Part shown: positions 7,960-24,010 of the stretch, piece by piece
Position numbering within the stretch: position 1 is the stretch's first letter
Layout of the letters: every line of letters starts with the position of its first letter
Assembly (NCBI GenBank): GCA_031275825.1
Contig: JAISOH010000059.1
Span: forward strand, 1-50,693
Reading direction: 5' to 3'
Source: Prevotellaceae bacterium
Lineage (GTDB): Bacteria > Bacteroidota > Bacteroidia > Bacteroidales > UBA932
DNA: 50,693 nucleotides
The notes under the pieces: generated by a model
What the model was told of the DNA's origin: nothing
Databases searched by the model: none
The model's input: the letters and a program-made list of their open reading frames with translations, nothing else
Made by a program: the position numbers and the translations under genes

Positions 7960-10626
7960 TTAAATTTTCATATTGAATTTCAACATAATATATCCGGGAA
8001 TACGGTAAAGATAATTTTCTACGATAACATTTTCTATATGTGAAATTTCGCGCCAGCGTTTATTCGACAAATGCAACATATCGCTGCCTGTTAATTCAAT
8101 TCCGTATTTTTCGTTGAATTTGTATCGCACATTTGCATCCCAGTAATAAAAATTTTGTGTAATCTTGCCTGCATTATTATTTTCATAACCAACAGATGTT
8201 GATATATAAAAACGGTTTTTAGCGAACGATATTTTTCCCGTATAACGTTGGATATCCTGCTTGTTCGAAACTGTTGTTTTGTAATATGACTGTGAAAAAT
8301 TTGCATAAACAGATCCATTGAAACCCTGTTTGTAACCGCTTTCTATTCCGATATTTGCCGATGGCGAATAACTGCGATATTTTATTTTGTTACTATTTAT
8401 AAAATATAGATATTTATTTTGCTGATAATTTATTTCTATTCTAAAATTTATCGGAGCAAATAAAAATTTTTTGGAAAAAGATGACATCGCAAAAAATGTT
8501 TGTTTTTCAGGACTTGTAACTGTTTTGACTTCATTTGTCAATCCTGCACGGAAATAATCTTTTGTTGTTGTATTTTTGTTGGTTTCGTACGATATATTTG
8601 TTATCAACTGTAAATTTCTGAATTGATTTACGATTATTAATAATGATGATATTCTGTGTTTTACGTAATATAAATCTGTAACATTGTTGCCGTACATATA
8701 GTTGCTGTAATCATTTAGATATATGCTCGAAATCAAATTTCCTGCTGATAATGAACTGATATTTTTGCTATAAGAAATTGTTAATCGCTGCGAGTGTTTC
8801 GGTACAAATGAAAATTCAATCTGCGGTTCGAAAATAATTTTATTGTTATCTGCAAGTATGTTTACATTATCTTTGGATGTGATATTTCGCAGAGCGCCTC
8901 CAATTTTAAATCCAAAAACTCCTTTGTTTTTTATAAATTTTAAGTTTAAACTTTGGTCAAAGCGATTAAAAAAAATATTATTTGATAAATTATCATCCGC
9001 AAGTAATTTTTTATTGCTGTTTGGAATCTTATCATAAATACAGGATGTAAATACATTATACATATAACCTGCTCCAAGCGTTATACGCATAAAATACTGT
9101 TCGTTAAACCTGTGTAAATATGAAAAATCCAATGTTGTATTAACATTTTTTGTTGCACTTTCCTGTAATCCGTAAAACATATTACCTGTTTCGGTAAAAG
9201 GTATCGGCAATAAAAGCGAATCTGTTCGAAAGTCGTAATATGCAGGACTCATTTTATATGAAAAACTTGCATTTGCCGTTAAAACATTTTCATTTATTTT
9301 TTTCAGCATGGTAAAAGCATGACTTGTATTCAACGATTTTTTACTGTTTTTGTCAAATACATAAAAATCAATATTTTTTACATCCGTATTGAATTTTACG
9401 AAAGTGTCATCAAATTTTCCCTGATAACTGTAATTTGTTTTTTCTGAAAAGTCGTATGCTAATTTCAAAAATACACTGCCGATGATATTGTATTTTTTTG
9501 TTTTTTCGAAATTAAAATAATTTTCATTCGTATCAAAGAAAGTATATCTTTTTTCCTTATCGGCTCTCAATTTCGATAAATTCAAAAGTCCATAAGAATT
9601 TATTTTAATTTTTTTGTTTGGCTGTGACGATAAATTTACGGAAGTTAAGGCGTTGGTATTACTGTAAACATTAGAAATATCAGGTTGCAGTAGCGCTGTT
9701 TCCGTTTCGTCAAACTCAAACGAAAATACATCGGTATTGTTAATAAATTCATTTAATCCGCCCTTCATTTTCAGATAATCCATAAAATCCAAAAGCGATT
9801 CGCCTGTATTATTTGCCGAAAGCGTTACAGAACTCATAATTTTAGGGAATAAACTTATAATATTGTTTTTCGTAGAATATTTATCTTTTACGCCTCCTGA
9901 AACACTTAAATTTCCGGTAATTTTTCCCAAAAAACTGTCGTTTACTTTCACATTTACAGCAGTTTTTTCATGCGATTGAAATCCTCTTAAAATACTGTAT
10001 TCGCTGTAATTGGTAACAACTTCCACTTTGTCGGCAATGTTTGCAGGCAAATTTTGCGTTGCTATTTGCGTATTGCCCGAAAACAGATCTCTTCCTTCGA
10101 TAAGAACTGTTTCAACATTTTTTCCCTGTGCTTTTATTCTTCCCGATTTATCGACTTCAATTCCCGGAAGTTTGTTCATCATGTCGCCGAGAGTAATTTC
10201 CGAACCATCGGTATATGCACGCGGGTCATAACGTATCGTGTCGCCGATAATTTCAAAACCTTTATAGTTTGCCGTTATTTTGGCTTCATTAATCTTCTCG
10301 GCTTCTTCTTTCAAAATAAAATCTGTTTCCAAATCATTGTTGCCGAAAAACCATACATTTGTACTTTCTGCCGAATATCCTATGCATCTTGCTTCTACGC
10401 TGTATTGTCCGTTTTGTATTCCGTTTATCTGATATTTACCTGCTTCGTCGCTTGATGTATATTTTACAACCGCGGAATCTTTTGTTGTACGTAATGTGAT
10501 TGTGGCAAATGAAACAGGATTATTGCTGTCATTGATTATTTTGCCTTTCAGTTTGTTTGTTTGAGCAAAAATCACGTTTGAAGAGTAACAACAAAATATC
10601 AATATAACGACAATAAATTTTTTCAT
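7960..10626 (-). CDS. outer-membrane beta-barrel family protein (CarboxypepD_reg-like N-domain); module B
   Basis: 888 aa. It has a signal peptide and an N-terminal GKIINDSNNPVSFATITL...DEAGKY segment. A plug-like LPGIEVDKSG...IEGRD stretch is followed by a long beta-strand-rich C-terminal region. Confidence 0.8.
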   Translation of the reverse strand: MKKFIVVILIFCCYSSNVIFAQTNKLKGKIINDSNNPVSFATITLRTTKDSAVVKYTSSDEAGKYQINGIQNGQYSVEARCIGYSAESTNVWFFGNNDLETDFILKEEAEKINEAKITANYKGFEIIGDTIRYDPRAYTDGSEITLGDMMNKLPGIEVDKSGRIKAQGKNVETVLIEGRDLFSGNTQIATQNLPANIADKVEVVTNYSEYSILRGFQSHEKTAVNVKVNDSFLGKITGNLSVSGGVKDKYSTKNNIISLFPKIMSSVTLSANNTGESLLDFMDYLKMKGGLNEFINNTDVFSFEFDETETALLQPDISNVYSNTNALTSVNLSSQPNKKIKINSYGLLNLSKLRADKEKRYTFFDTNENYFNFEKTKKYNIIGSVFLKLAYDFSEKTNYSYQGKFDDTFVKFNTDVKNIDFYVFDKNSKKSLNTSHAFTMLKKINENVLTANASFSYKMSPAYYDFRTDSLLLPIPFTETGNMFYGLQESATKNVNTTLDFSYLHRFNEQYFMRITLGAGYMYNVFTSCIYDKIPNSNKKLLADDNLSNNIFFNRFDQSLNLKFIKNKGVFGFKIGGALRNITSKDNVNILADNNKIIFEPQIEFSFVPKHSQRLTISYSKNISSLSAGNLISSIYLNDYSNYMYGNNVTDLYYVKHRISSLLIIVNQFRNLQLITNISYETNKNTTTKDYFRAGLTNEVKTVTSPEKQTFFAMSSFSKKFLFAPINFRIEINYQQNKYLYFINSNKIKYRSYSPSANIGIESGYKQGFNGSVYANFSQSYYKTTVSNKQDIQRYTGKISFAKNRFYISTSVGYENNNAGKITQNFYYWDANVRYKFNEKYGIELTGSDMLHLSNKRWREISHIENVIVENYLYRIPGYIMLKFNMKI

Positions 10627-10652
10627 AAAAATCTTGCTGTTTGCGCTGTATT

Positions 10653-11351
10653 TTAGAATTGCAGGGCATTCATACGCTTTTCAACCATTTTTTTGTATTC
10701 TTCTTTTGTTGTTTTAGCGCCTTTTACAGGATCTTTTATTTCGCAGGATAATTCATCCGATACCTTTATTGCAGTGAATGTTGCTTCTTTTCTTATCATT
10801 TCCAGAACCAGTCCCTGCAATCCCGTATAAATAACGCCATCGCTTACAGGTAAATTTTTGCAAAACCAGACAATAATTGAATCGGATTTACAAACAGCTT
10901 TGGTGCAAACATAATTCAGTATTTTTTTTGTTGAATCGATAACAGTCCATTCATCTGCTTTCAATTCGCCGTCAATCAAAAAATCTTTTCCCAAAAAACT
11001 TTTCTGCTGAATTTCTCTCTTTGTTTTATGGTTTCTGTAAGTAATATCGTCTCCGATGTTTTCATTCATGTTAACCTTCATACCCATGATTTCGATTTCA
11101 TTGTTTTTGGAGTCGAGTTTCATGTTTCTGAAAAGACTTTCGCCGTTTGAATAGCAAAAGCAATATTTCATTTTCAATCCTCTTACCGATTTCATAATGT
11201 CGTCCATTATGCTTTGGTCAACGCCTGCAATTTTAATTTTATTTGCAGCGGGCTTGGGCTGTACTTCGTACACCACTTCTATTGTTTGAGCGTTTGAATA
11301 TACAAATGTCGCCAAACAGAATACTGCTGTTAAAAATAGTTTCTTTTTCAT
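10653..11351 (-). CDS. GLPGLI-family protein (secreted)
   Basis: 232 aa with a signal peptide. The motif GLQGLVLEM sits where this Bacteroidota family carries GLPGLI. The gene is adjacent to an OMP of the family it usually accompanies. Confidence 0.65.
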   Translation of the reverse strand: MKKKLFLTAVFCLATFVYSNAQTIEVVYEVQPKPAANKIKIAGVDQSIMDDIMKSVRGLKMKYCFCYSNGESLFRNMKLDSKNNEIEIMGMKVNMNENIGDDITYRNHKTKREIQQKSFLGKDFLIDGELKADEWTVIDSTKKILNYVCTKAVCKSDSIIVWFCKNLPVSDGVIYTGLQGLVLEMIRKEATFTAIKVSDELSCEIKDPVKGAKTTKEEYKKMVEKRMNALQF

Positions 11352-11378
11352 TGTTTTTTTTATTTTTAAATTAATTCA

Positions 11379-12062
11379 CTATATTTTAATATTTTTCATC
11401 AAATCTTCTACATTATTTTCTATCATTAGATAAAGCTGTTGCTTTAATATGTCAAACTCATCTATCGGATATTTGTTTTTTATTTCTCCGTCGGATATAT
11501 AAAAAATATAATCGCAAATATCGGGCAAAACTTCGATAATATGAGATGTAACAATAACTGTTTTTGTTGATTTTTTAAGTTTTTTCATTATTGTTTTTAG
11601 AATTTGCACGCTTTCTACATCTAATCCGTTAAAAGGCTCATCAAAGATATATATGTTTTTATTCATCTTCAATCCAAACAAAACAGATAATTTCTTTTTC
11701 ATTCCTGTCGAATAGTTATCTATTAACTCGTTCAACGGAATATTAAATAATTTTCCCCATAAATCAGCATCAAAATTTTTATTATTTATCAGGTTGAGAT
11801 ATTCTTTTCCTTTGATATATGAGTAGAAAAAATTTTCTGCTTCGATATATGCAATATTTTGTTTAGATAATTTTTCGTTGTTTTGTAAAATTGTTCCAGC
11901 ATCAACTTTTTTTATTCCGTAAATTGCGTTTAGCAGGGTTGTTTTTCCTGAACCATTGAGTCCGACAATGCCGTAAACATTACCTTTTTCAATTTTCATA
12001 CTGACGTTTTTAAGTACTTTCTTTTTTCCGTACGATACATTTATGTTTTCAATCGAAATCAT
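11379..12062 (-). CDS. ABC transporter ATP-binding protein
   Basis: Walker A GLNGSGKTT, signature YSTGMKKKL and Walker B IYIFDEP. Overlaps the upstream membrane gene by 14 nt. Confidence 0.9.
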   Translation of the reverse strand: MISIENINVSYGKKKVLKNVSMKIEKGNVYGIVGLNGSGKTTLLNAIYGIKKVDAGTILQNNEKLSKQNIAYIEAENFFYSYIKGKEYLNLINNKNFDADLWGKLFNIPLNELIDNYSTGMKKKLSVLFGLKMNKNIYIFDEPFNGLDVESVQILKTIMKKLKKSTKTVIVTSHIIEVLPDICDYIFYISDGEIKNKYPIDEFDILKQQLYLMIENNVEDLMKNIKI

Positions 12063-12996
12063 CCAAATAGAAATTTAAGTTATTGATAGCCTGTTTATAA
12101 CTGATTATTGCAAACGGAACAGTAAAAATCAATAATGGTAAAATCAGATTGCTTAACAGAATAAACATAACAATAACAATGTTTGCGCCCGAATATTTTG
12201 CAGGTTTGTACGTTGCGTATTTATTTAAAATTATAACAGAAAAACAAAATATATTTACCGTAAAAAAACAAATTGTTAACAACCACAGTTCGCAATTCAG
12301 AATTCCATGCAGAATAATAATTGGAGCAATTACTTTAAAATAATTTTTCATGTGTGAAAATAATTTGTTATTAATGAATTTTTTTGCTCCGTATTCGTTT
12401 ATAACCAGCATATTCAAAGGTTCATTCGCTTCATAAAAAGATGCAAATATTAATAAAATAATCCATGCAAACACGAGCGAAACATAAGAAATAAACGACA
12501 AAGATAAAGCCAATATCCACAGCAAAAACACAAATAATCCTGCACTTCTTAATCCCGCTATCCATTCAAAATTTTCGTTTTTTGCAAGTCGTGAAAAAAG
12601 CGATATTGAGGCAGTTGAATTTTTACGATGATACATATTTACAGTTGAAATTAAAAACATGCCCGCCAGTGACAATATCAGATAAAACAAATTTGTTGCA
12701 AAGACAATAAGGACAAGTAAAGGCAATGTATAAACAAGATATTCGGTAAAATAAACCAAATACGGATGTTCAAAAACAGCAGCAACAAATTTTTTATCTT
12801 TTCGTAATGAATGAATGGTTGCACTGCAAATATAACATGCCAATATAGATAATTTTTTGTTTTGGCTGAATGCATTATTAAGATATACGGCAAACAGCAA
12901 AACAATTACAAAAAGGACTATGATTCTAAGTATTCCCAATTCTTTCATTATTCTAATAAATTGCAATAATCTTATATGCAGCAGCGCTTTTAACAT
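12049..12996 (-). CDS. polytopic membrane protein, putative permease partner
   Basis: 315 aa with multiple hydrophobic segments. It is translationally coupled to the ATPase at 11379-12062. No recognisable family motif. Confidence 0.55.
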   Translation of the reverse strand: MLKALLHIRLLQFIRIMKELGILRIIVLFVIVLLFAVYLNNAFSQNKKLSILACYICSATIHSLRKDKKFVAAVFEHPYLVYFTEYLVYTLPLLVLIVFATNLFYLILSLAGMFLISTVNMYHRKNSTASISLFSRLAKNENFEWIAGLRSAGLFVFLLWILALSLSFISYVSLVFAWIILLIFASFYEANEPLNMLVINEYGAKKFINNKLFSHMKNYFKVIAPIIILHGILNCELWLLTICFFTVNIFCFSVIILNKYATYKPAKYSGANIVIVMFILLSNLILPLLIFTVPFAIISYKQAINNLNFYLDDFD

Positions 12997-12997
12997 A

Positions 12998-13762
12998 TTA
13001 ATGCATTCCTAATTTTCCATGCTTTTTTGCATAGTTTTCGGCAAATTTAAAACACATAATTCCAATTACAAGGTAAACCGTGCTATTGGCAATAATCATT
13101 ATCATATCAAATATTCCAAAATCATAATTGATATTTTGTATTATCGACAACGAAACTTTATTTGATGTGCCAAACGGCAGAATATGAAAGAATATTGAGT
13201 CCATATTTTTCAGAGATAAATATGAAATTCCTGAAAAAAATATAACACTAAAAATAGTAACAATCATACTAACTTGCTTGAAAGCAAGAATAAATGCTCC
13301 TGCAATTAAACTGAATCCCCATATGGACGGAATTCCTAATATAATAATTGGCAATCCTATCAAAAAACCTAACAAATTTGTTTTAATAATCAGAGATATT
13401 ATGCAGATTATTGAAAATGTAGGTATCATATTTAATATGAACGAACTTAATGCTTTAAGAAAAATAATTTTGCAATACCCTCCGCTACTTATATATAATT
13501 GTTCTAGTGTTCCCAGTGTACTATCGCCAATAATGCCTTGCGTTATCGAAGTGAAACTGGTTTGCATTATTAGCCATAAAACCAAAGGACCAAGCACTAC
13601 AAGTTTACTTTTTCCATGTGTTGCTATCGCTATGAAAGTATCGGGAATTAACAATATTCCTAAAAATATAACAGACATAAATATTATGCTCGCAATAGTA
13701 TTAGCCTTGTATCTCCACAAGTATAAAAATTCTTTTCTAAAGATTGTTTTAAGCAGCAACAT
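12998..13762 (-). CDS. ABC-2-type permease
   Basis: 254 aa with about 6 hydrophobic spans. It lies immediately downstream of the ATPase at 13771-14682. Confidence 0.7.
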   Translation of the reverse strand: MLLLKTIFRKEFLYLWRYKANTIASIIFMSVIFLGILLIPDTFIAIATHGKSKLVVLGPLVLWLIMQTSFTSITQGIIGDSTLGTLEQLYISSGGYCKIIFLKALSSFILNMIPTFSIICIISLIIKTNLLGFLIGLPIIILGIPSIWGFSLIAGAFILAFKQVSMIVTIFSVIFFSGISYLSLKNMDSIFFHILPFGTSNKVSLSIIQNINYDFGIFDMIMIIANSTVYLVIGIMCFKFAENYAKKHGKLGMH

Positions 13763-13770
13763 ATAATAAT

Positions 13771-14682
13771 TTATTTTTCTTTTATAAAATTTAAGTAAAT
13801 AGTTTCAACATCGTTGTTCATTTTCAATATATCTGTAATATTTACATTTTCATGCTCAAGATAATTCAATACTGTTGATAATCGGATTTGTTCAGTATTT
13901 ACATATATGCAATTACTTTTAAATTCAACGCCTGCAAATTCCGTATTTTGCGTTAAACTACAATCAAACGTTATCTTGTATATGTTATTGTTTATGTTTT
14001 TCATATCAATATCATGAATTTTACCTGATTTTATGAATAAATGCTTTGATGCTATCGTCCGGATAAACTCCAAATCATGCGAAGTAGCCAGTATCAATTT
14101 GTTTTTCACAAATTCACCATGTGAAAAAAACTCTTTCAATTGATTTTTTGATTCTACATCCAAACCTAATGTTGGTTCATCTAAAAATACAACAGGAGTA
14201 TCAACGACCAAAGTACAAATTAAGGCGGTTTTTTGCTGCATGCCTCGCGATAAGGTTTCAACAAGACAGTCTTTTTTGTCATATATGTATAAAGCTTTAA
14301 GCAAATCGCTTGCAAAATTTTTGATTTTCGAATATTTTATGCCGCGCAAACCCGCAAAAAAACGAATATTCTCCAATACGGTTAATTTCCAATAGATATT
14401 TCTGTTACCTTCAAGTACGGCGCTGTAATCTTTATGTGTCAATTTTCGTTTTTTTCCATTTTCTTCAAGCGTAATATTACCATCAAATGATATTAGATTT
14501 GTGCATGATTTTATAAATGTGGTTTTACCAGAGCCGTTCTGTCCGAGCAAACCAACAATCTGGTTATCGCTTATCTCAACAGAAATATCATCAAGCGCTT
14601 TAACTGCACCTTTTTTGTGTGGGTAATATTTTGTTAAATTTTTTATAGAAATGGTAGTCATAAATTTTGATTTATTTAACAT
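13771..14682 (-). CDS. ABC transporter ATP-binding protein
   Basis: Walker A GQNGSGKTT, signature LSRGMQQK and Walker B VVFLDEPT. The start may be the internal MTTISIKNL. Confidence 0.9.
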   Translation of the reverse strand: MLNKSKFMTTISIKNLTKYYPHKKGAVKALDDISVEISDNQIVGLLGQNGSGKTTFIKSCTNLISFDGNITLEENGKKRKLTHKDYSAVLEGNRNIYWKLTVLENIRFFAGLRGIKYSKIKNFASDLLKALYIYDKKDCLVETLSRGMQQKTALICTLVVDTPVVFLDEPTLGLDVESKNQLKEFFSHGEFVKNKLILATSHDLEFIRTIASKHLFIKSGKIHDIDMKNINNNIYKITFDCSLTQNTEFAGVEFKSNCIYVNTEQIRLSTVLNYLEHENVNITDILKMNNDVETIYLNFIKEK

Positions 14683-14708
14683 GCAAAATTAATAAAAAAC
14701 AGTTATAT

Positions 14709-15854
14709 TCATATTATAAATTGATTAATTTTTAAAATTCTATCCTGTATTTTTGGATGAGTACTGACGCAAAAAGTATATAATGGATGTTTATTGATTT
14801 TAATTAACGAATCATCTTCGATTTTATTTAACAGTGAAATAATCGCATTTTTGTCAATTAAATTAGCGGCATATTTATCTGCGTTATATTCTATTTGACG
14901 CGATATTATGTTTCTCACAACATATAATATCACAATTATAGGTAAAATGTACAGATGAAAATAAATCAAATTAATTATTAAATAAGGCGTTACAAAAATA
15001 TGCTTCATAAACAGTATAAACAATCCAATGAAAATTATTATATAGAAAATATTTTCTATAAGCTGCTTAATATTATCATTATTTTTGTAATGTGCTAATT
15101 CGTGTGCATATAATGCACAAATTTCTTCATTTGAAAAATTACTATTCATTAATCTACTAGAAAATATAACTTTCTTATTATCTCCATGCCCACAAATGCA
15201 AGCGTTTGCAGTCTTACTTTTTAATTCTGACACAAATATTTTTGTCATAACTTTGGCATGTCTGGCAATATCCTCCAATGATTTTTTTAACATTTCATCA
15301 TCTATTTCTTTCGCTTTAATGCCAATTGTTTGTATTTTGTCTTGAAAAATGGTTGTTAGAATTATAAATGCAGACAAAAAAGACAGAAGCAATATGCTTG
15401 AATTATCGTACATATATACAATAATGCAAAAAAATGCAATGCTAAAAGCAATTATAATACCAGATCTTAACGTGTAATCTATTATAAATTTATGCAAATT
15501 TCGTTTTATTTTATATATTTGTGCATCAAATATAATATTTAATATGTTTTTTATTAGCATATATAATCTAATTACAAAAACAATCAAAAACCACAATAAA
15601 ATATTTATTAATAACGAATTATATTTATGTTGAGTAATATTTATTAATAATTTATTATTTATTATAATATAAATAACTACTATAATGGTAAATTTAAATA
15701 ACATTTTGATAAGATACAGACATGAAAATTTACATCGAAAATTTTTCAAATTTAATTGTTTTCCAGTATAGAAATAATTAATAATGTCTGCTACTAAAAC
15801 TAATAATGAAATTATTACAAAATTTATTGTGCTTATCTCATATATTGCTTTCAT
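14709..15854 (-). CDS. M48-family (HtpX/Ste24-like) membrane zinc metallopeptidase
   Basis: 381 aa with multiple TM segments. It has HELAH (HEXXH), then NADKYAA and STHPKIQDRI downstream, as in M48 peptidases. Confidence 0.75.
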   Translation of the reverse strand: MKAIYEISTINFVIISLLVLVADIINYFYTGKQLNLKNFRCKFSCLYLIKMLFKFTIIVVIYIIINNKLLINITQHKYNSLLINILLWFLIVFVIRLYMLIKNILNIIFDAQIYKIKRNLHKFIIDYTLRSGIIIAFSIAFFCIIVYMYDNSSILLLSFLSAFIILTTIFQDKIQTIGIKAKEIDDEMLKKSLEDIARHAKVMTKIFVSELKSKTANACICGHGDNKKVIFSSRLMNSNFSNEEICALYAHELAHYKNNDNIKQLIENIFYIIIFIGLFILFMKHIFVTPYLIINLIYFHLYILPIIVILYVVRNIISRQIEYNADKYAANLIDKNAIISLLNKIEDDSLIKINKHPLYTFCVSTHPKIQDRILKINQFII

Positions 15855-15868
15855 ATTTTCTTATAAAA

Positions 15869-17704
15869 TTATAAAAATTCTTTAAAACAACAATCTTGCT
15901 GCATTTGTGTGTTTATCATATATTTATTTATCCGCTTGGATATTGTAAATTGATGAATAGTTAAACAGTCACTATATAATTTGCATTGTTCACAAGCAGG
16001 ACATTGGGGTAAATCAATATTTGCAAAAAAGGCATCTAAATTTTTAAATCCCTCTGAAATTTCATTAGCTATATTTTTTCCTAAAATTATATTAGCATCA
16101 ATTCCATCTCTTTTTGCTTCTAAAAATATCAGAATATTCTTGTAATAAGTATTTTCTACGTGATTTGTAAGTTGCATAAAGAATTTCATCCAATTAACAG
16201 CATTATGGATGTCATTTAACATGTATAAAAAGGCAACCATAAAATAAGCAATAGGTATGTGATACCAATAAGAATCATGCCTAAATGATAATTTTAATAA
16301 ATCTTTCATTTTTATAAAATCTGTATCCATACCCACATTTTGTATAATATTTGCTATTTTGCGTATTTTATATTGAGAAAGATTTTTACTTGGGAAAAAT
16401 AAATCTTCTATAGTATCAAAATCAACGTAAGAATTGAGAGACACATTATCAGTAGATGCATTTTTTCTTCCTATTGCCGAAATAGTTGGAATATAAATGT
16501 AAAAAGACGGAAAACCAAGGAAAGATACGTTACGCAAATATACATTATATCCATCAACTAAAAAATTATTTATTATCTTTTTAACTTCTTGGTTATATGA
16601 ATCGCCAGAAGAAAAAGTAGAACTATCGAATTCATAAGAATAATTTGTGCCGAATAGTGATATTGGAAATACTCCACTGCCATTCATAATAAACTTTCGT
16701 AATATCTTATCTCTTTGATGGATTGATTGTTCATCAGAATTAATAAAATAATCAAGTTCTTTTTGTGGCACATCTAATAGATTTTCGGCAAAAGTCTTTA
16801 TATCTTTATATCCTTGATAAATTTCGGTTAACGCTCTGCTTAATGCAATAGGAAAAGATGTATCTGACCCAACATTTAATTTATATTTTGTTTTTTCTTT
16901 GTTAATTATAATTACTCCTATTGCAGGTAGATGTTTACCTGCAGAAAAATCTTTAACAATAACATTATAATTTCCATCTTTCTCTATTTCTTTTATTAAC
17001 TTATATTCAGATGGATATTGCTTTATAAAATCAATAGCAATAGTTGGGGGTGTCAATTTTTCAAAATAAACTGTTGATGAGGCATATCGTTCATATAATT
17101 CACATAAACCTTGAAAAACTCCTTCTGATATTGTGTTTCCTGCTGCCATTCCATTTGAGCCTGTAAACATTAGCATAATGTTATATGGTAGATATATTAT
17201 GCTATTGTTCTTTACATCAAAAAACGGGACAGAAATTATTCCGTCATATCCATTCTTTCTGGCTTTATTAAAATAAATTTCTATTTCTTTTTCTGTAAGT
17301 CCATGTTTAAATACATCATCTAAAAATTCTTTAGGTAAATTTTTGAATTCATCTTTTGTCATTATTTTTTCATCCGGAAAAAAAACAAAACCAGTTTCTT
17401 TCTTAATTTGATCTAAAAACATTCTATTGAGAGATGCAGATCCACTCACAAAGCCATTTTGTAAACGTTCTATGAATTCTGCATAAGCACTTGCCAATGC
17501 ATATTGGCGTGTTCTTCCTTTACCGTTTGTTCCAAATTGTCCTCCTGCCGTATCTGCTTCTACTCTTACTGAAAATGTTCCTTCATACGGATTTCCCCAA
17601 TAACTTTCATAAACAAATATATCAAGATTTGCTAATATTGCTCGTATTTTATGAATTGTATTATTTGGAGTATCTTCTTTGTATTTTCTTTTAGTCATAA
17701 TCAT
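15869..17704 (-). CDS. YcaO-domain protein, long E. coli-like architecture (module B)
   Basis: 611 aa. YcaO signatures are GTNGKGRTRQYALASAYAEFIERLQN and GSNGMAAGNTISEGVFQGLCELYERYA. It has a C-terminal CPACEQCKLYSDC (CX2CX2CX5C). Confidence 0.88.
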   Translation of the reverse strand: MIMTKRKYKEDTPNNTIHKIRAILANLDIFVYESYWGNPYEGTFSVRVEADTAGGQFGTNGKGRTRQYALASAYAEFIERLQNGFVSGSASLNRMFLDQIKKETGFVFFPDEKIMTKDEFKNLPKEFLDDVFKHGLTEKEIEIYFNKARKNGYDGIISVPFFDVKNNSIIYLPYNIMLMFTGSNGMAAGNTISEGVFQGLCELYERYASSTVYFEKLTPPTIAIDFIKQYPSEYKLIKEIEKDGNYNVIVKDFSAGKHLPAIGVIIINKEKTKYKLNVGSDTSFPIALSRALTEIYQGYKDIKTFAENLLDVPQKELDYFINSDEQSIHQRDKILRKFIMNGSGVFPISLFGTNYSYEFDSSTFSSGDSYNQEVKKIINNFLVDGYNVYLRNVSFLGFPSFYIYIPTISAIGRKNASTDNVSLNSYVDFDTIEDLFFPSKNLSQYKIRKIANIIQNVGMDTDFIKMKDLLKLSFRHDSYWYHIPIAYFMVAFLYMLNDIHNAVNWMKFFMQLTNHVENTYYKNILIFLEAKRDGIDANIILGKNIANEISEGFKNLDAFFANIDLPQCPACEQCKLYSDCLTIHQFTISKRINKYMINTQMQQDCCFKEFL

Positions 17705-17734
17705 TTAAAATAAGTTATTTAATTGATAATAAAA

Positions 17735-17762
17735 AAATAGGGTACAATATCGTACCCTATTT
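17735..17762 (-). terminator. hairpin plus T-run between the mini-ORFs and YcaO B (attenuator/terminator-like)
   Basis: AAATAGGGTAC (17735-17745) pairs with GTACCCTATTT (17752-17762) around a 6-nt loop. On the minus strand a T7 run follows it. Confidence 0.6.
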
Positions 17763-17773
17763 ATACTCTCAAC

Positions 17774-17890
17774 TTAGATTACAGATCTGTTTTGGAAATG
17801 AAAATAAGCCGGCGCAGCACTTGCTGCCATTAAAAGTAAGATAGGTACAGCAGCGACTTCATGTTCTTCTTCTTGTGTAAAATACTTCAT
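17774..17890 (-). CDS. mini-ORF B1 (38 aa), candidate precursor peptide or small membrane peptide
   Basis: Below the ORF-track cutoff. It reads MKYFTQEEEHEVAAVPILLLMAASAAPAYFHFQNRSVI and is a paralog of B2. Confidence 0.55.
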   Translation of the reverse strand: MKYFTQEEEHEVAAVPILLLMAASAAPAYFHFQNRSVI

Positions 17891-17945
17891 GATTTTGATT
17901 TTTAAAAAATTAAACATTAATAGATAATATAAGACCCCAAAGAAA

Positions 17946-18059
17946 TTATATCAAACTACGATTTTCATGAAAAAGAAGGAATCGTAATAAGGTAGCTAAA
18001 ATTGGAGCTAAATTTAATTCTTCATTTGAAGAATCCTCATAATTTGTAAAATACTTCAT
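17946..18059 (-). CDS. mini-ORF B2 (37 aa), paralog of B1
   Basis: It reads MKYFTNYEDSSNEELNLAPILATLLRFLLFHENRSLI. With B1 it shares the MKYFT start, an acidic stretch, a hydrophobic centre and an FH-x-NRS-(V/L)-I end. Confidence 0.55.
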   Translation of the reverse strand: MKYFTNYEDSSNEELNLAPILATLLRFLLFHENRSLI

Positions 18060-18179
18060 AACTTTGAAATTTTAATTTATTAAACATTTTATTAATTTTA
18101 TAAAAGCAATTTTCATCGCTCTTATTGATAGCGAAGTAAGTAATTAAATCTTTACAATCTATCAGATGTGTTCAACTAT

Positions 18180-18231
18180 CTAATAAGTGACAGATTTGAA
18201 CTAATAAGTGATAGACTTTTACAAATAAGTG
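18180..18231 (-). promoter_or_regulatory. three direct repeats at an exact 21-bp period upstream of the mini-ORFs
   Basis: On the plus strand: CTAATAAGTG at 18180-18189, CTAATAAGTG at 18201-18210 and CAAATAAGTG at 18222-18231. They lie 120-170 bp upstream of the B2 ATG. Confidence 0.6.
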
Positions 18232-18235
18232 TTTT

Positions 18236-18585
18236 TTATATCAGTTCAACAAAATGTTTTTTGAACTCTATCCACTTTCTGTCAGATACTTTCAGTTTTA
18301 TATTATTTGTGAGTAATATTTCCTTTTTTCTATTGTTAACTTGCTGTATGTATCTGGCATTAACCAAAGTATTATGATGTATTCTAATGAAACCATAAGT
18401 TGCAAGTTCGTTTTCAAAAGATTTTAAAAGTTTTGAACAAGTAATCCTGTCTTCTTTATCAATATATATATATCGCACAGGTAACAATCAGATATTATAT
18501 ACGTTATATTTATTGCCATAAGTTGACGAGTAATGCCGCCTGTTGTAACAACAATAGATTTTGTATTTTGTAAATCATAGTTCAT
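18236..18585 (-). pseudogene. standalone LytTR-domain DNA-binding protein, frame broken at an (AT)6 tract
   Basis: The upstream frame from ATG 18585 reads MNYDLQNTKSIVVTTGGITRQLMAINITYIISDCYLCDIYI.... The track ORF (18236-18487) reads ...YIDKEDRITCSKLLKSFENELATYGFIRIHHNTLVNARYIQQV..., which is LytTR-like (FxRxHxS/TxxVN). Deleting one AT from (AT)6 at 18462-18473 fuses them into a 115-aa protein. Confidence 0.7.
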
Positions 18586-18657
18586 TTTTACTTATTTTTA
18601 CAATTAAAAATCGTAAAGTCTTATTTGTTTGTTCGCAGTTACAGAAAAAACTTTTTT

Positions 18658-18744
18658 TACAAAGGTAAAAACATGTTTTTCAAAAAAACACTTTTTGGCG
18701 TAAATAAAATTTCACACTGTGTATAATTTTATTTCACACTTTCG
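18658..18744 (-). promoter_or_regulatory. conserved promoter cassette, copy 2 (upstream of the LytTR gene)
   Basis: ATTTCACACT at 18709-18718 and 18731-18740, palindrome at 18669-18678, and the -7 box CAAAGGTA (plus strand) at 18660-18667. Confidence 0.7.
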
Positions 18745-18992
18745 GCATAACCGCTTGCCATTGAATATTCTATGCTCGTTCCTTTGCCATTAGTGCCTAT
18801 ATCAAATTCCATTAAGTTATCATTAGCGATTACAATTCTACAAGTAAAATAATCACCATCTTGTATAAATTTTTCGGATACAAATATACCAAGTTCACTC
18901 AGTATAGAACGAATTTTGTTTATAGTAATTACCGGCTTTTCTTCTTTATACGGTTTTAACATCTTATTCATACCATTATATTTTAAATCCAT
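18729..18992 (-). pseudogene. YcaO N-terminal stub (about 85 codons), truncated at the junction with promoter cassette copy 2
   Basis: It reads ...INKIRSILSELGIF...DIGTNGKGTSIEYSMASGYAE and then runs into cassette sequence (SVK*). The DNA around 18743-18810 closely matches YcaO A at 5940-6000. Confidence 0.8.
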
Positions 18993-18994
18993 TT

Positions 18995-21409
18995 TTATAA
19001 TCTTTGTTTTTCATCTGCGTTTGAAGGCAAAGATATTTGTGGCGTTTTGTTATACCAGTTGCCGAGCCTCCACGACAATGTTAATCTAAACATTCGCGTG
19101 TCATTATAATTTCGGTAAATTTGTTTAACACCGCCACTTATGTAAGTATATTCAGGATTTGCTGTTTTTAAAATGTCGCCGACCAAAAACCTCGCTTCAA
19201 ATCCCTTTTTACTGTTTGTGTAATTAAATCCAATATCTATTTTGAAAAAATTATTCATCGATCTGTAATTATATAAACCGGGAAATCTTTCTTCTAAATT
19301 GCAAACTATCTGAAATTTTTTGTTAATGCGAAATGTGTTATTTGCTATAACTGTGCTACTTATACCGTACATATCCGCAAACTCTTTTTTATTTGGATGA
19401 TATTCGGAATAATTGAAATTGCCCTGTAAAACTGTTTCCAGCCAATTAAACAGTTTTAAAAATTTATAGATACTGATTCCATAAATATTCACATTAAAAA
19501 AGTTGTCTGTTTGCTGTATCTGTTCCAAAATATTGAGAGAATCAAGAACTACATACTGTCCTGTTTTATCATCTTGACGAGTGTAATATATTTTTGTACT
19601 GAATGTATGATTAAGCACATAAGTTAATTCCAGATTTTTGATATACGATGGTTTTAAAAAAGGATTTCCCACACCATAACTGTATTTGTTGATGTACCAT
19701 TTAAAAGGGTCCAAGTATTGATATGGAGGTCTTTCTATTCTGCTGGCATAACTGAGTGAAATACTGCTTTTGTTATTCAGTTTATGAGAAATATAAATTG
19801 ACAGAAAAAAATCCGTATAATTATTTTTATACTGTTCATTCGTAATCAGAGAATTGCCGACGGTTTGAGTCATTTCTGAACGTATTCCTGCTTTGAAAGA
19901 CCATTTTGGAATGGTTTTTTCCATACTGTAATACACTGATTGCACTTCTTCGGTGTACTTGTATTTATTTGACTGGGAAGGATCTAATATATTGATATGG
20001 TCAACAAAGTTAAATAATTCATTATCAGAGGAAGTTTTAATAAATGACAGTTTAAGACCTGCATTAACCGTACAGTTAAACAGAGAAAAAACGAAGTCTA
20101 TTTTTGGAGTTAAAATATTATAATTCTGGCCTCCTTTTGTATAATAATTATCAGTTGTTGAATTTACACTGTTTATTTGCGTTAAGGAAGAAAAGTCTCT
20201 TCTTTTTTCAGTGTGATTATTGAGATAAGCCATACTTGCCGTAAAGTATGATTCCCTGTTCGGAAACAAATGCTTAAAAAACACTTCGGAATTGAATGTG
20301 TAATTATTTGTTATCATTGTTCCAGTAGAATACATAATTGAATCTGTCTGATTATTGGCAGAATTAACAAAAGAGGTTTGGTTTTCTATATCGATCATTG
20401 TTTCTTTGTTATGTAACGGTATTTGAAAATCAACAATAATATTTGAGTTTTTATTGAAATTATATCCTAATTTTACCTCTGCATCAGAAATATTAAAACG
20501 CCATTTTCTTGGATTAAATGTGCTTATTGTTTCATCGGGAAAATAATCGTAAAAATTAATTTGATTTAAGACTAATGAATTCCAATTGTTTATATTACCC
20601 TCGAAAAATATTTTTTCTCCGGTATAATTTACTAATGCAGAAACCATGTAAGATGAGTAAGTAGCTTGAACATAACCCGCTCTAAAGTATTCTTTCCAGC
20701 CCGGAAGAATATTTTTTTTAGTTACTATTTTAATAATTCCCGGATTACCTTCAGCATCGTATTGAGCAGGAGGCGAGGTTATTATTTCTACACTGCTTAT
20801 AATATCAGGTGGAAAAGAGTTAAGGTAGTTTAATAAAGACTGTCCTTCCAATCGTACAATTCTATCGTTAATATACACAATAACAGATGATTTGCCGAAG
20901 ATATTCATACTTTGGTCAGTGATATTTACAGTTGGTAACTGCTTCAAAATATCAGTGATTTCTTTACCTTTAGTTTCTACGTTTCCGCTAATGTTTACCA
21001 CAAGTCTGTCGGATTTAGCCTCAATTAATTCTTTTTGTCCAATTATTGTCGCCTCAGAAATAATAAGCGGATCAGGCTGTAAAACAAAATCGATTATGGT
21101 GTCATTTTTCAAAGCGAATTTATTGGAAACCGCAGAATAGCCTAAAATATTTACTAACAACTCACAATCGCCTGTTTTTGTCGTCTCTAAATAATAATTT
21201 CCCATAGAATCGCTTAATGCGTATTGATGATAAACAGATTCAAATAACAGTTGAATACTGGCAAATTCAACAGGCTCGCCATTTGAGTTTTTTATATTTC
21301 CTTTGATAATGAACGTTTGAGAGCGCAACTCATTCACTCCTGATGCAAATATTATAACAAGCAGTAACTTAAACAGTTTGAACATAATATGATTAGTTTT
21401 TCCATTCAT
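18995..21409 (-). CDS. outer-membrane beta-barrel family protein (CarboxypepD_reg-like N-domain); module C
   Basis: 804 aa. The likely true start is MFKLFKLLLVIIF at 21385. It has an N-terminal GNIKNSNGEPVEFASIQL...DSMGNY segment and a beta-strand-rich remainder. Confidence 0.8.
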   Translation of the reverse strand: MNGKTNHIMFKLFKLLLVIIFASGVNELRSQTFIIKGNIKNSNGEPVEFASIQLLFESVYHQYALSDSMGNYYLETTKTGDCELLVNILGYSAVSNKFALKNDTIIDFVLQPDPLIISEATIIGQKELIEAKSDRLVVNISGNVETKGKEITDILKQLPTVNITDQSMNIFGKSSVIVYINDRIVRLEGQSLLNYLNSFPPDIISSVEIITSPPAQYDAEGNPGIIKIVTKKNILPGWKEYFRAGYVQATYSSYMVSALVNYTGEKIFFEGNINNWNSLVLNQINFYDYFPDETISTFNPRKWRFNISDAEVKLGYNFNKNSNIIVDFQIPLHNKETMIDIENQTSFVNSANNQTDSIMYSTGTMITNNYTFNSEVFFKHLFPNRESYFTASMAYLNNHTEKRRDFSSLTQINSVNSTTDNYYTKGGQNYNILTPKIDFVFSLFNCTVNAGLKLSFIKTSSDNELFNFVDHINILDPSQSNKYKYTEEVQSVYYSMEKTIPKWSFKAGIRSEMTQTVGNSLITNEQYKNNYTDFFLSIYISHKLNNKSSISLSYASRIERPPYQYLDPFKWYINKYSYGVGNPFLKPSYIKNLELTYVLNHTFSTKIYYTRQDDKTGQYVVLDSLNILEQIQQTDNFFNVNIYGISIYKFLKLFNWLETVLQGNFNYSEYHPNKKEFADMYGISSTVIANNTFRINKKFQIVCNLEERFPGLYNYRSMNNFFKIDIGFNYTNSKKGFEARFLVGDILKTANPEYTYISGGVKQIYRNYNDTRMFRLTLSWRLGNWYNKTPQISLPSNADEKQRL

Positions 21410-22703
21410 GAAAATTAATATTATTGCCGCTAATTATAACAGGATGCAATTGAATGTACAATTTAATCATTGCACTCCAATAAATATTGTAAGTTTTACA
21501 CAGATATTCGGATGGTTCTTCTGTGTTTTTGTTTTCCAACCATTTTATTGCAAAACAAGAGCCGGAACATAAATATTTCATCCAGCAAACTTTGCACGTT
21601 GGATAATTATCTACCGGCTTGGCATAATAATTATTCTTGAGTATTTTCTCATAATCAATTCCTGTGTAGATATTACCGACAGATAAATCTATAGAACTGG
21701 AATGATAGGAACAGGGAAATATGTTTCCATCAATATCTATAAAATAACCTTCTTTTGATGCTACACATCCATTTTTATTAACCGCACCATAATGAATTCT
21801 TTTTAAGTCATTTATTATTTTAGTTGAGTATATTTTGTGATTGTCTTCAATCAATTTTCTGTAATTGTCAATAACTGTATCCAGTTGTTCTTCAAAAGTT
21901 TTAAGATCTTCGGTATTTGGTGAAAAATGATTGTCAAATGAATTTGTAGCGATAGTGAAAATAAAATGAATTTTGTTTTGTTCAAAAAATAAAAATGTTT
22001 CGACAAGATTTTTATTATCAGGGAGAACAACAGTTTTACATGAGAATTTAATATTATTTTCTTTTAACAAATTCATGTTATGAAATACATCTTTAAAACT
22101 TCCCTTACCATTATGATATATGCGAGATTCATCGTTAATTTTTTCATTACCATCCACACTTATATATATTGTAAACTTATTCAATTTGAAAAATTCAATC
22201 ATTTCATTTGTTAATATTGTTCCATTTGCAGTTAAATCAAAATCACATTTATTAAATCCATTTTTTTTGCACAGATAAGGTATTTGTTTTAATAAATTAA
22301 AATTTAAAGCAGGTTCTCCATACCCTGTAAAATAGAAAGTAATATGATTATTTTTTACATTCTTTAGAAACTTTAATATATCTAAAAACTTTTCTGTATT
22401 TAGTAGTTTTAGTGACTTTTTAGATGCAGAAACATAGCAATATGTGCAATCCAAAGTACAACCATGCGCTATATCAATTCCAATAGTATTGATGATTTTA
22501 CCGTCCATAAAATCATTTTCTATATTTGCTCTTTCATTTTTATCTATGGTTGCATTGGATTTTTCTTTTTCAGTTTTTATTTCCTGCAATACATTTTCAA
22601 TATTTTCACCTTGCTGTATTTTGCAAATTTCAAAATCTTCAACGCAAAATATGTATCCTGAATTATCAACATTAAACTGTTTATATGCCAAGTTCATTTT
22701 CAT
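21393..22703 (-). CDS. radical SAM / SPASM-domain peptide maturase (module C, intact)
   Basis: 436 aa. It has CTLDCTYC (CX3CX2C), GYGEPAL, and the C-terminal Cys-rich SPASM-like stretches GCVASKEG...FPCSY...CKVCWMKYLCSGSC. An extension of about 75 aa precedes the SAM cluster. Confidence 0.88.
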   Translation of the reverse strand: MKMNLAYKQFNVDNSGYIFCVEDFEICKIQQGENIENVLQEIKTEKEKSNATIDKNERANIENDFMDGKIINTIGIDIAHGCTLDCTYCYVSASKKSLKLLNTEKFLDILKFLKNVKNNHITFYFTGYGEPALNFNLLKQIPYLCKKNGFNKCDFDLTANGTILTNEMIEFFKLNKFTIYISVDGNEKINDESRIYHNGKGSFKDVFHNMNLLKENNIKFSCKTVVLPDNKNLVETFLFFEQNKIHFIFTIATNSFDNHFSPNTEDLKTFEEQLDTVIDNYRKLIEDNHKIYSTKIINDLKRIHYGAVNKNGCVASKEGYFIDIDGNIFPCSYHSSSIDLSVGNIYTGIDYEKILKNNYYAKPVDNYPTCKVCWMKYLCSGSCFAIKWLENKNTEEPSEYLCKTYNIYWSAMIKLYIQLHPVIISGNNINFHEWKN

Positions 22704-22777
22704 TCAATAAATTATAATTTATTTAAAATATTGTAAAACAAAATTACTACTTATTTAATACAAAACAATTAAAGAAA

Positions 22778-22830
22778 GTTTCCTCAAAAAATCAACTTAA
22801 TTAAAGATAGGTTTAATTTATTGAGGAAAC
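22778..22830 (-). promoter_or_regulatory. stem-loop between precursor C and its maturase gene
   Basis: Perfect 10-bp inverted repeat: GTTTCCTCAA (22778-22787) pairs with TTGAGGAAAC (22821-22830), with a 33-nt loop. Confidence 0.45.
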
Positions 22831-22881
22831 AATAATGATATTACATCATTCATTTAGTTAACTTATTATTGTCAACCATCA

Positions 22882-23067
22882 TTAATGATTATAACCAGGG
22901 TAACAAGCAGCGTAACAAGCATTATCAGTGTTTCCATCTAATAGTATGTCGCCTAAGTTCTCTCCCTTTCCTCCTCCTTTAAGTTTTTTTAGCATCTCGC
23001 CATTTAACGAAAAGTACTTGATTTCATTTAATTTGGTGCTTTGTACCTTTTTTGATACTTTTTTCAT
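22882..23067 (-). CDS. GG-leader precursor peptide C
   Basis: 61 aa. The leader is MKKVSKKVQSTKLNEIKYFSLNGEMLKKLKGG and the core is GKGENLGDILLDGNTDNACYAACYPGYNH. It is the first gene behind cassette copy 3. Confidence 0.75.
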   Translation of the reverse strand: MKKVSKKVQSTKLNEIKYFSLNGEMLKKLKGGGKGENLGDILLDGNTDNACYAACYPGYNH

Positions 23068-23091
23068 ATTAATAAAATTTTTTAATTTTTG

Positions 23092-23230
23092 GCTAATTTT
23101 CAGGCATAGCCTTTTTCCTTTTTTATTTTTTCACAAAGGTACAAACATGTTTTTCAAAAAAAATGCTTTTTGGCGTAAATAAAATTTCACACTATGTATA
23201 ATTTTATTTCACACTTTTACGTAAGCGTTT
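23092..23230 (-). promoter_or_regulatory. conserved promoter cassette, copy 3
   Basis: ATTTCACACT at 23184-23193 and 23206-23215, palindrome at 23143-23152, and the -7 box at 23134-23141. Confidence 0.7.
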
Positions 23231-23235
23231 ATTAT

Positions 23236-23505
23236 TCAGTTGAATATATCATAATAAGCATACAAGTCAGAAAATTCGGAATCTTCGGGAAATTTTTCTT
23301 TTTCCTTAAAATGTTTAAAGAAATTATAATCCAATACCTTTGATATTTGCAGCAGCAATGCAGTATCAATGCTCGAACGCTTAAAAATATCATAAACATT
23401 TTCGCGTGTTTTATTGATTAGCCTTGCAAATTCGGTAACAGTAAGAGAACTTTGATTTACCTTTTGCCGTATAAGGTTGCCTATGTGAACTTCATTTTTT
23501 TTCAT
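23236..23505 (-). CDS. small XRE-type helix-turn-helix protein
   Basis: 89 aa. LTVTEFARLINKTRENVYDIFKRSSID is an HTH-like stretch. The gene heads the whole minus-strand locus. Confidence 0.7.
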   Translation of the reverse strand: MKKNEVHIGNLIRQKVNQSSLTVTEFARLINKTRENVYDIFKRSSIDTALLLQISKVLDYNFFKHFKEKEKFPEDSEFSDLYAYYDIFN

Positions 23506-24010
23506 TTTTATTTTTTAAAATTCTGCTTTTGAATACTGCTTTCATTTATTTAAGATGTTTCCACGCATCTCGTGTCAATTTATTTATATCGTTGATAATA
23601 TGCCAATTATCCGATATTTTTTGTGCTGTTTCGCTTTATGGTAATACGGCTTTATTTGTTGCCATAAAAATTTAATTTTACATATTGCAAATTTAACAAT
23701 TTTATTTTAATATTTCCAAATTTTCAGGTAAAAATATTTTATTTCAATGCACTGCTTGAGATTTTAATTAAATTTGTTACGCAGTCGCTCCTTGCGAATA
23801 AAAATAAGCAAAAGATAAGATGTTAAAATTTCCGGTCAGTAATATATCATTGCCGGTTTTTATTCGTAAGGAACAGTTAAATAATAATACCGACATGTTT
23901 TACGTTTAATTTTGATAATTATTTTCAAATAATTGTTGTTGTAATATAAAATTTCATTAACTTTGCAGCCCAAAAATCGAAGTAAGGTTTTTTAATAAAC
24001 CATACAAGTA

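Follow-up and report, generated by a model that had tools for sequence, protein, structure and literature searches.

We describe here two small open reading frames (ORFs), B2 and B1, which lie in tandem on the minus strand of a 50,693-nucleotide (nt) stretch of DNA from a Prevotellaceae bacterium (assembly GCA_031275825.1, contig JAISOH010000059.1, positions 1 to 50,693; hereafter the window), directly upstream of the gene for an E. coli-type YcaO enzyme, YcaO B. The overall results imply that B1 and B2 are probably two paralogous precursors of peptides that are made on ribosomes and altered after translation (RiPPs), in a system the minimal module of which would comprise one or more small peptides and one E. 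coli-type YcaO. Genome comparisons indicate that they belong to a real family of small peptides encoded directly upstream of one YcaO clade in at least seven phyla. An earlier, sequence-only reading of the window had put B1 and B2 forward as candidate YcaO substrates; the linkage of peptide and YcaO across phyla supports that proposal, and candidate substrates is what they are still best called.

B2 (18059-17946, minus strand; MKYFT...FHENRSLI) has the form of a precursor-type peptide of 37 amino acids (aa), MKYFTNYEDSSNEELNLAPILATLLRFLLFHENRSLI, with the family N-terminus M-K-Y and tail R-S-L-I, and B1 (17890-17774, minus strand; MKYFT...FHFQNRSVI), its tandem paralogue of the same type, has 38 aa, MKYFTQEEEHEVAAVPILLLMAASAAPAYFHFQNRSVI; the coordinates, strand and translations are as first reported. 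B2 lies 55 nt upstream of B1, the stop codon of which lies 70 nt from the start of YcaO B. The two units are duplicated in tandem, with the same first 15 coding bases (ATGAAGTATTTTACA) and the same element (AATGTTTAAT) upstream, and the boundary of the duplicated unit, comprising the upstream A/T-rich element and the first codons (17865-17906, shared with 18034-18075, minus strand), forms a direct repeat, D8, with 76% identity. A second in-frame ATG, at 17917, would extend B1 to 47 aa. The start at 17890 is likely, because the matching DNA upstream of B2 is out of frame (the AATGTTTAAT element precedes the ATG by 28 nt in B2 and by 27 nt in B1) and because relatives begin with M-K-[Y/F]. In the last five codons, which encode N-R-S-(V/L)-I (AAC/AAT, AGA/CGT, TCT/AGT, GTA/TTG and ATC/ATA in B1/B2), eight of the 15 bases differ between B1 and B2, yet N, R, S and I are preserved. 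The B1 stretch ...AASAAPAYFxxxxR... also resembles relatives, for example ...LLASIPTPAYFQYSHRALI in locus L164.

More than 500 homologues of YcaO B have E < 1e-20 in a protein search, and via an alignment of homologues 79 genome loci were fetched and their upstream ORFs listed. The clade considered here comprises 43 loci (two of them lacking upstream DNA), the YcaOs of which are 35-52% identical to YcaO B. At least one same-strand small ORF with the tail R[PSATV][VILA][LIVM] lies just upstream of YcaO in 32 of the 43, and six further loci have near-variant tails, i.e. GKTVL/GETVL, SYPVL, GLPIL, IGALL, SRPRM and KRPVM (shifted frame). The tail ends 42 of the 824 same-strand frames that terminate within 900 nt upstream of YcaO in the related loci, against a background of 32 of 18725 frames (0.17%) elsewhere in them, which amounts to a ~30-fold enrichment; in the window it ends six of 2337 stop-delimited frames, two of which are B1 and B2. 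Loci with a YcaO at least 35% identical to YcaO B nearly always have one to five small same-strand ORFs, and the family members start with M-[K/R]-[F/Y] (M-x-[F/Y] in the upstream-ORF listing) and finish with R-[P/S/A]-[V/I/L]-[L/I/V/M]-stop (e.g. ...EETGRPVL, ...GPGDIGRPIM, ...AFNRSIL and ...EFARPVL). B1 and B2 belong to the family by this definition, being small same-strand ORFs upstream of a clade YcaO with the form MKY...RSVI and MKY...RSLI, respectively. Loci with more distant YcaOs (~30% identical) have double-glycine (GG)-leader peptides in place of the family ORFs. The taxa with the pair of peptide and YcaO comprise, among others, Bacteroidota, Spirochaetota, Bacillota, Desulfobacterota, Acidobacteriota, Chloroflexota and Omnitrophota; no actinobacterial locus was present among the relatives of YcaO B. 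A metagenome scan returned chiefly housekeeping YcaOs at 25-29% identity, together with three useful loci. In the closest relative (L001), a called gene of 45 aa lies just upstream of YcaO and encodes MKYLVNHAAAPVDAQAGAAGGLALAAALAAIPTDANFQQSNRPLI.

The pairing is also recovered in reverse, starting from the peptides. A profile made from 16 peptides alone, with a 45-aa first row, was searched against a collection of 5.8 billion proteins and matched 17 proteins of 41-53 aa, none of which is named beyond "hypothetical protein" or has a Pfam domain; all four of the matches looked up sit 49-94 nt upstream of a YcaO gene. The search beside YcaO genes in other genomes which the sequence-only reading had suggested thus finds the pairing conserved in both search directions. 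Gene callers predicted family members on up to 71 contigs. Scans with Pfam and NCBIfam (June 2026 release) gave no meaningful match for B1, B2 or ten diverse family members.

Selection on B1 and B2 was judged from their comparison with each other and from family-level pairs, since they have no close database relative. Codon-level comparison of close peptide pairs gives ratios of nonsynonymous to synonymous differences (pN/pS) between 0.19 and 0.37, and only whole codons are inserted or deleted. Together with the retention of N, R, S and I through different codons in B1 and B2, these values speak against unconserved frames or equal rates of nonsynonymous and synonymous change (dN = dS), the outcome which the sequence-only reading had named as fatal to its claim of selected coding sequence; at the family level the frames are conserved and under purifying selection. 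They also bear on whether B1 and B2 are chance ORFs without a product in A/T-rich intergenic DNA. The window has a G+C content of 33.5%, short ORFs are abundant in it and the mini-ORFs have no Shine-Dalgarno sequence, but the tail enrichment upstream of YcaO, the recovery of the YcaO context by a search with the peptides, pN/pS values below 0.4, the turnover of synonymous codons at conserved B1/B2 residues and the prediction of family members by gene callers make chance a negligible explanation.

Across 44 family peptides (25-112 aa), conservation is concentrated at both ends. Position 2 is K/R in 28 and position 3 F/Y in 35 of the 44; counting back from the C terminus, position -1 is L/I/V/M in all 44, position -2 is aliphatic, position -3 is P/S/A in 41, position -4 is R in 39 and position -5 is G/N in 28. 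In Bacteroidota and Spirochaetota, B1 and B2 included, the middle is hydrophobic and rich in Ala; it is acidic/aromatic in some Bacillota-like metagenome-assembled genomes (MAGs), and a long poly-Gln stretch in Desulfobacterota and Acidobacteriota; a hydrophobic centre is absent from members outside Bacteroidota and Spirochaetota. Twenty-nine of the 44 peptides have no Cys. Tandem arrays of two to five diverged copies occur in L012, L014, L024 and L010, and such tandem copies appear to resemble the precursor arrays which often occur in RiPP systems. The largest arrays, with five diverged copies (41-42 aa, ...E[E/D]TGRPVL) before one YcaO, are in L014 and L024, MAGs labelled Mcinerneyibacteriota and Bacillota. 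The peptides of a set of Desulfobacterota and Acidobacteriota loci (L022, L023, L028-L031 and L034) have 59-112 aa, a M-x-F-F-P start, long poly-Gln tracts and ...YGPGD[I/L]GRP-h-h ends (h, hydrophobic residue), and just upstream of the peptide these loci encode another conserved protein, which is Met/Pro-rich and has 72-123 aa.

The linkage data are of association rather than of a substrate relationship, and the peptides might be small proteins tied to YcaO in another capacity, i.e. as a partner or scaffold, as an immunity or membrane accessory, or as an unmodified secreted peptide. The Ala-rich hydrophobic centre of the Bacteroidota members, which is borderline for a membrane helix, and the membrane proteins (M48, ABC and LGT-like) which often adjoin would fit such a role. 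We nonetheless regard it as unlikely, given that the members in other phyla have a poly-Gln or acidic/aromatic middle in place of the hydrophobic centre with the termini preserved, that arrays of two to five diverged copies suit substrates better than subunits, and that the minimal two-gene loci encode no other candidate substrate. To our knowledge, all YcaOs characterised so far act on the backbone of a peptide or protein.

The proposed modifying enzyme, YcaO B (17704-15869, minus strand), looks catalytically intact. Its YcaO domain is full length (Pfam YcaO, PF02624, 1.6e-46, covering profile positions 1-324 of 325), and its best match in the PDB is 4q84 (E. coli YcaO, EcYcaO; 6.5e-44, residues 14-518). 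The S/E/E and SNGMxAGN...E..ER motifs of YcaO B align with 4q84; more precisely, the equivalent segments of EcYcaO are aligned with ALASAYAEFIERL and with SNGMAAGNT...QGLCELYERY. S70, E74, E77, N188, E200, E203 and R204 are invariant in 32 homologues of YcaO B, and these are the residues which, after Dunbar et al. 2014, we take to be ATP/Mg-binding. The C-terminal region carries a CxxCxxCx5C motif, the cysteines of which (C566, C569, C572 and C578) are likewise invariant in the 32 homologues. This region has no aligned counterpart in EcYcaO, because the alignment stops at query residue 518; the Cys-rich C terminus of YcaO B, CPACEQCKLYSDC, aligns with CFDCEVCKVSKTC of a second YcaO in the window, YcaO A, the two proteins being 29% identical.

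With regard to the type of chemistry, clustering of all neighbouring ORFs reveals that YcaO alone is universal beside the peptide. Of 44 loci, 16 have ABC (ATP-binding cassette) ATPases, nine have LuxR-type regulators, six have ABC-2 permeases and five have a gene resembling that for prolipoprotein diacylglyceryl transferase (LGT-like). Pfam/NCBIfam scans of the proteins of the B operon found no E1-like/ThiF-type partner, dehydrogenase, TfuA, radical S-adenosylmethionine (radical SAM, rSAM) or C39-ABC gene, and no TfuA is present among the conserved neighbour families of the related loci. The peptides B1 and B2 contain no Cys and only two to four Ser/Thr residues, as had been noted. Operon B thus has neither the Cys/Ser/Thr-rich core, E1-like/Ocin-ThiF partner or fusion and, often, flavin mononucleotide (FMN) dehydrogenase which characterise azol(in)e-forming YcaO systems (thiazole/oxazole-modified microcins (TOMMs), linear peptides that contain azol(in)es (LAPs) and cyanobactins) nor the tfuA gene beside ycaO which characterises TfuA-dependent thioamide RiPPs, and YcaO B scores 56.7 bits against the TOMM model TIGR03604, the cut-off of which is 219. 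These findings are consistent with the non-azoline chemistry which the sequence-only reading had suggested and which YcaO B would presumably catalyse.

Between B1 and YcaO B, beginning 11 nt past the B1 stop codon, is an intrinsic-terminator-like hairpin with a 12-bp stem and a T-run (17762-17735, minus strand). The fold energy of -19.2 kcal/mol (z = -5.8, with none of 200 shuffles as good) bears out the earlier description of a hairpin plus T-run after the mini-ORFs, and a scan for terminator-like sites found one where 0.1 are expected. In ~19 of 31 related loci, the last peptide gene is followed by a hairpin, the stem of which has 9 bp or more. The hairpin is probably an attenuator which sets the ratio of precursor to enzyme. 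The same arrangement, i.e. mini-ORFs directly upstream of YcaO followed by a terminator-like hairpin, could in principle reflect regulatory leader or arrest peptides which control the hairpin and hence ycaO expression, and the strongest conservation does lie in the last five residues. C-terminal conservation of this kind, often with R-P, loosely recalls TnaC-type arrest peptides. However, the extreme N terminus is likewise conserved, purifying selection extends over the whole length within subfamilies, the peptides vary in length from 25 to 112 aa and can form tandem arrays of up to five, every copy having a start of its own, and the YcaO of the two-gene loci would be left without an encoded substrate. 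No alternative antiterminator pairing was found in the window, though no systematic search was made. We consider a leader-peptide function quite improbable.

The sequence-only reading had offered an alternative, i.e. that B1 and B2 are membrane inhibitors of an adjacent LytTR regulator, by analogy with HdrRM and BrsRM of Streptococcus mutans, in which small genes, the products of which have a hydrophobic centre, come after a stand-alone LytTR gene. A gene for a stand-alone LytTR DNA-binding protein is indeed present directly upstream of B2, but it is not intact, being split between two overlapping frames (18585-18424 and 18487-18236, minus strand; Pfam LytTR 3.9e-13 for the 83-aa part); the split is a frameshift or an assembly error. 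B1 has a hydrophobic stretch of ~19 residues, as an inhibitor of this type might, whereas B2 falls below a transmembrane-like score over 19 residues. The inhibitor reading fails because a LytTR homologue is encoded in none of the related loci, in which the peptide travels with YcaO; it is further contradicted by the conservation of the termini rather than of the hydrophobic centre, which is missing outside Bacteroidota and Spirochaetota. Its probability is accordingly very small. Regulation of the peptide operon by a LytTR protein is possible, and it could act at two copies of the 15-mer TCTRTCACTTATTAG (18215-18180, minus strand), which lie between B2 and the LytTR gene with 21 nt from one start to the next. 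These are the only two exact copies in the window. Spacing of 21 nt is the usual geometry of LytTR binding sites, and the pair is thus a candidate LytTR-type operator.

With B1 and B2 as the probable precursors, the following sequence of events can be proposed. Transcription would begin upstream, candidate start regions being a promoter-like repeat at ~18660 and the LytTR-type operator at 18215-18180, and would read through B2 and B1; most transcripts would end at the hairpin, with some continuing into the ycaO, M48 and ABC genes, such that precursor would be made in excess over enzyme. YcaO B may bind the peptide ends, i.e. the N-terminal M-K-[F/Y]-h and the C-terminal [G/N]-R-[P/S/A]-[V/I/L]-[L/I/V/M], and with ATP could catalyse O-phosphorylation of a backbone amide within the last four residues, the R-S-(V/L)-I tail. 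Displacement of the phosphate by sulfide or ammonia would yield a thioamide or an amidine, respectively. In the present lineage, the membrane M48 protease might then trim the hydrophobic peptide, and the ABC systems might export it or confer immunity. Activation of a backbone amide in the B1/B2 tail is proposed by analogy, because the YcaO ItfB and E. coli YcaO act likewise.

Several points weigh against assignment of B1 and B2 as precursors. A leader/core precursor would not usually have two conserved ends around a variable middle, as these peptides do, and no protease or transporter is universal across the family loci. The proposed chemistry would hold by analogy only, with enzymes that are at most ~30% identical. 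B1 and B2 have no close database relative, the best YcaO match being 52% identical, and their whole-length comparison is near saturation (pS 0.65, pN 0.50), such that alone it is not decisive. The observations concern the genes, their conservation, their linkage and the selection on their frames; the role as substrate, the modified site, the chemistry and the roles of the M48 and ABC proteins are each a step removed from these.

Of the characterised systems, the ItfA/ItfB pair from Bacteroides thetaiotaomicron provides one analogy. According to the work of Clark and Seyedsayamdost (2022), as cited in PMC11002830 and PMC10352776, ItfB is a YcaO with an Fe-S-type (iron-sulfur) domain which forms a backbone amidine at the C-terminal I-T-F of ItfA, with ammonium as the nitrogen source. 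The likenesses to operon B are a non-azoline YcaO with a C-terminal Cys-rich (Fe-S-type) part, a short conserved motif at the extreme C terminus of the precursor, where Itf is modified, and a Bacteroidales host. The Cys-rich extension, putatively of Fe-S type by its sequence, is an Itf-type feature which YcaO B has. By contrast, operon B has no rSAM/SPASM partner, the rSAM genes of the window being those of the flanking clusters A and C, and no peptidase-containing (C39) ABC exporter; B1 and B2 have no GG-type leader and end in R-[P/S/A]-h-h rather than I-T-F. Their family, moreover, spans at least seven phyla with a minimal form of two genes, and for it the chemistry is proposed by analogy.

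E. coli YcaO, the best solved-structure match, shares the ATP/Mg motifs of YcaO B and likewise has no E1-like or TfuA partner. EcYcaO alone, with ATP, Mg and sulfide, thioamidates the ribosomal protein uL16 at Met82, beside Arg81 (PMC13063428; Rice et al. 2026). One may speculate that the position of the modified M82 directly after R81 is mirrored in the conserved Arg of the B1/B2 family tail. There are clear differences: EcYcaO is strongly acidic (pI 4.4) and recognises folded uL16 (PMC13063428), whereas YcaO B has a pI of 6.36, has a dedicated peptide gene upstream and scores 218 bits against NCBIfam model NF040716, for which the cut-off is 700. YcaO B thus lacks the marks of a housekeeping EcYcaO, i.e. 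strong acidity, a match to the equivalog model and no accompanying peptide gene. Non-acidic members which group with EcYcaO are reported to sit in putative RiPP clusters (PMC13063428). Streptamidine-type amidine RiPPs resemble the present system in having short, mostly unannotated precursors beside stand-alone YcaOs (10.1101/2020.05.04.076059), a peptide family which co-evolves with one YcaO clade, and no Cys/Ser/Thr-rich core; they differ in phylum, that family having been defined only in Actinobacteria, and in having different motifs (10.1101/2020.05.04.076059).

More tentatively, and with confidence that falls somewhat short of even, B1 and B2 may represent an undescribed, cross-phyla class of RiPP in which a two-gene module, comprising a small peptide with M-K-[F/Y] and G/N-R-P/S-h-h ends and an E. 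coli-type YcaO with four conserved Cys, would install an uncatalogued C-terminal backbone modification, with lineage-specific membrane processing afterwards. The candidate products are a thioamide formed without TfuA, an amidine, and a cyclic amidine the formation of which is assisted by Arg. The membrane processing would involve M48 in the present locus and LGT-like or LspA-like enzymes elsewhere. In one locus with an NR-x-LI-type peptide (L166), a gene for a rhodanese-thioredoxin fusion lies directly downstream of YcaO (4309-4998); its product may donate sulfur, a role that would speak for thioamide chemistry.

Downstream of YcaO B, all on the minus strand, the operon encodes a multi-pass membrane M48 zinc metalloprotease (15854-14709; Pfam Peptidase_M48 1.1e-22) with an HExxH motif, HELAH, at residue 251, then an ABC ATPase (14682-13771), an ABC-2 permease (13762-12998), a 315-aa multi-pass membrane protein (12996-12049) and a second ABC ATPase (12062-11379), these four being assigned from Pfam matches and hydropathy. 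The operon tail encodes a member of the GLPGLI family (11351-10653) and an outer-membrane protein of the CarboxypepD_reg type with 888 aa (10626-7960), for both of which a link to the peptides is uncertain; a GLPGLI homologue after ABC genes is also present in L038. In the closest relative, L001, an M48 gene follows YcaO and the same four ABC-type genes flank it, at 32-54% identity. An M48 or M56 gene follows YcaO only in L001-L003, L164 and L021. M48 was considered as a defining partner and rejected, being found only in the closest Bacteroidota loci. Because it is confined to these nearest loci, it is accessory rather than core, i.e. a lineage-specific accessory and a candidate for processing.

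In other loci (L004, L005, L008 and L163, in the last with a 9-nt gap) an LGT-like gene lies right after YcaO; L165 and L168 group with the Bacteroidales loci which have LGT-like genes, and a signal peptidase II (LspA) gene follows YcaO in L169. Some matching peptides have a lipobox-like LAAC or LASC, which hints at lipidated products. The idea that the peptides are lipoproteins was not adopted, as three LGT-linked peptides are without a lipobox Cys and B1 and B2 are without Cys.

The B operon is flanked by two further peptide clusters, both on the minus strand. Cluster A (7661-1905), a second RiPP cluster, is Itf-like, with genes for a 65-aa GG-leader peptide (7661-7464; ...KGGTSNSGNLTGDTSQLMAQDNAYIGIFHTYHDVH), a radical SAM/SPASM enzyme (split into the ORFs 7377-7204 and 7115-6282), YcaO A (6167-4311) and, at 4268-1905, an outer-membrane protein of the TonB-dependent type; its YcaO looks to belong to a true Itf-type cluster. 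Cluster C (23067-18729), the third, encodes a 61-aa GG-leader peptide (23067-22882; ...LKGGGKGENLGDILLDGNTDNACYAACYPGYNH), a PapB-like rSAM/SPASM enzyme (22703-21393) and, at 21409-18995, an outer-membrane protein. The cluster ends with an 87-aa stub, which corresponds to the N terminus of an enzyme of the YcaO A type, has 52% identity to YcaO A and is truncated at a repeat. The regions 1901-7871 and 18653-23512 of the window have 81-92% DNA identity to contigs of Prevotellaceae MAGs, the isolate names of which suggest a termite-gut origin. In a related Prevotellaceae contig (L060/L061), clusters A and C are adjacent, being 86 nt apart, whereas in the window they are separated by the ~10.8-kb B operon (about 7871-18652), which lies between two copies of the repeat. 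The B operon looks to be inserted because clusters A and C are adjacent in the relative, because repeat copies flank it and because the upstream YcaO is cut to a stub; it has the appearance of a cassette acquired within a RiPP island that adjoins an integrase gene (137-1357).

The repeat is promoter-like, with a copy at 18652-18745 and others at 7716-7870 and 23126-23280 (minus strand; families D1, D2, D5 and D6). The three copies are 83-94% identical, one lying upstream of each of the three peptide operons, and may be a shared regulatory site. Each contains two GTGTGAAAT boxes ~22 nt apart and one TACCTTTG (18667-18660, 7731-7724 and 23141-23134, minus strand), a fit to TAnnTTTG, the -7 motif of Bacteroidetes. 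Across the window TAnnTTTG is weakly enriched (109 sites against 87 expected), and a sigma-70 promoter scan was uninformative (seven sites against 8.7 expected).

YcaO-dependent RiPP-type systems are already known; what is new is the family of precursors, together with its two-gene minimal form and its wide phylogenetic distribution. The literature on stand-alone or orphan YcaOs and the YcaO papers from 2024-2026 contain no description of the B1/B2 family, subscription-only works being outside the search, and the literature on YcaO with M48, HtpX, Ste24 or CAAX contains nothing relevant. Figure S33 of PMC13063428 presents putative RiPP clusters near EcYcaO-like enzymes, with which the B1/B2 family may overlap.

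For most YcaOs that are not of the azoline, TfuA or bottromycin type, no substrate is known. The results presented here link one large clade of E. coli-like YcaOs to a peptide partner that is genetically encoded and can be recognised; gut Bacteroidales, sulfate reducers and Chloroflexota are among the groups with this pairing. Current annotation misses these peptides or leaves them unnamed, at best as "hypothetical protein". The simple rule by which they can be recognised, i.e. a same-strand small ORF with a M-K/R-F/Y start and a R-P/S/A-h-h end, makes the function of the clade testable, and the family could yield new backbone chemistry at the peptide C terminus.

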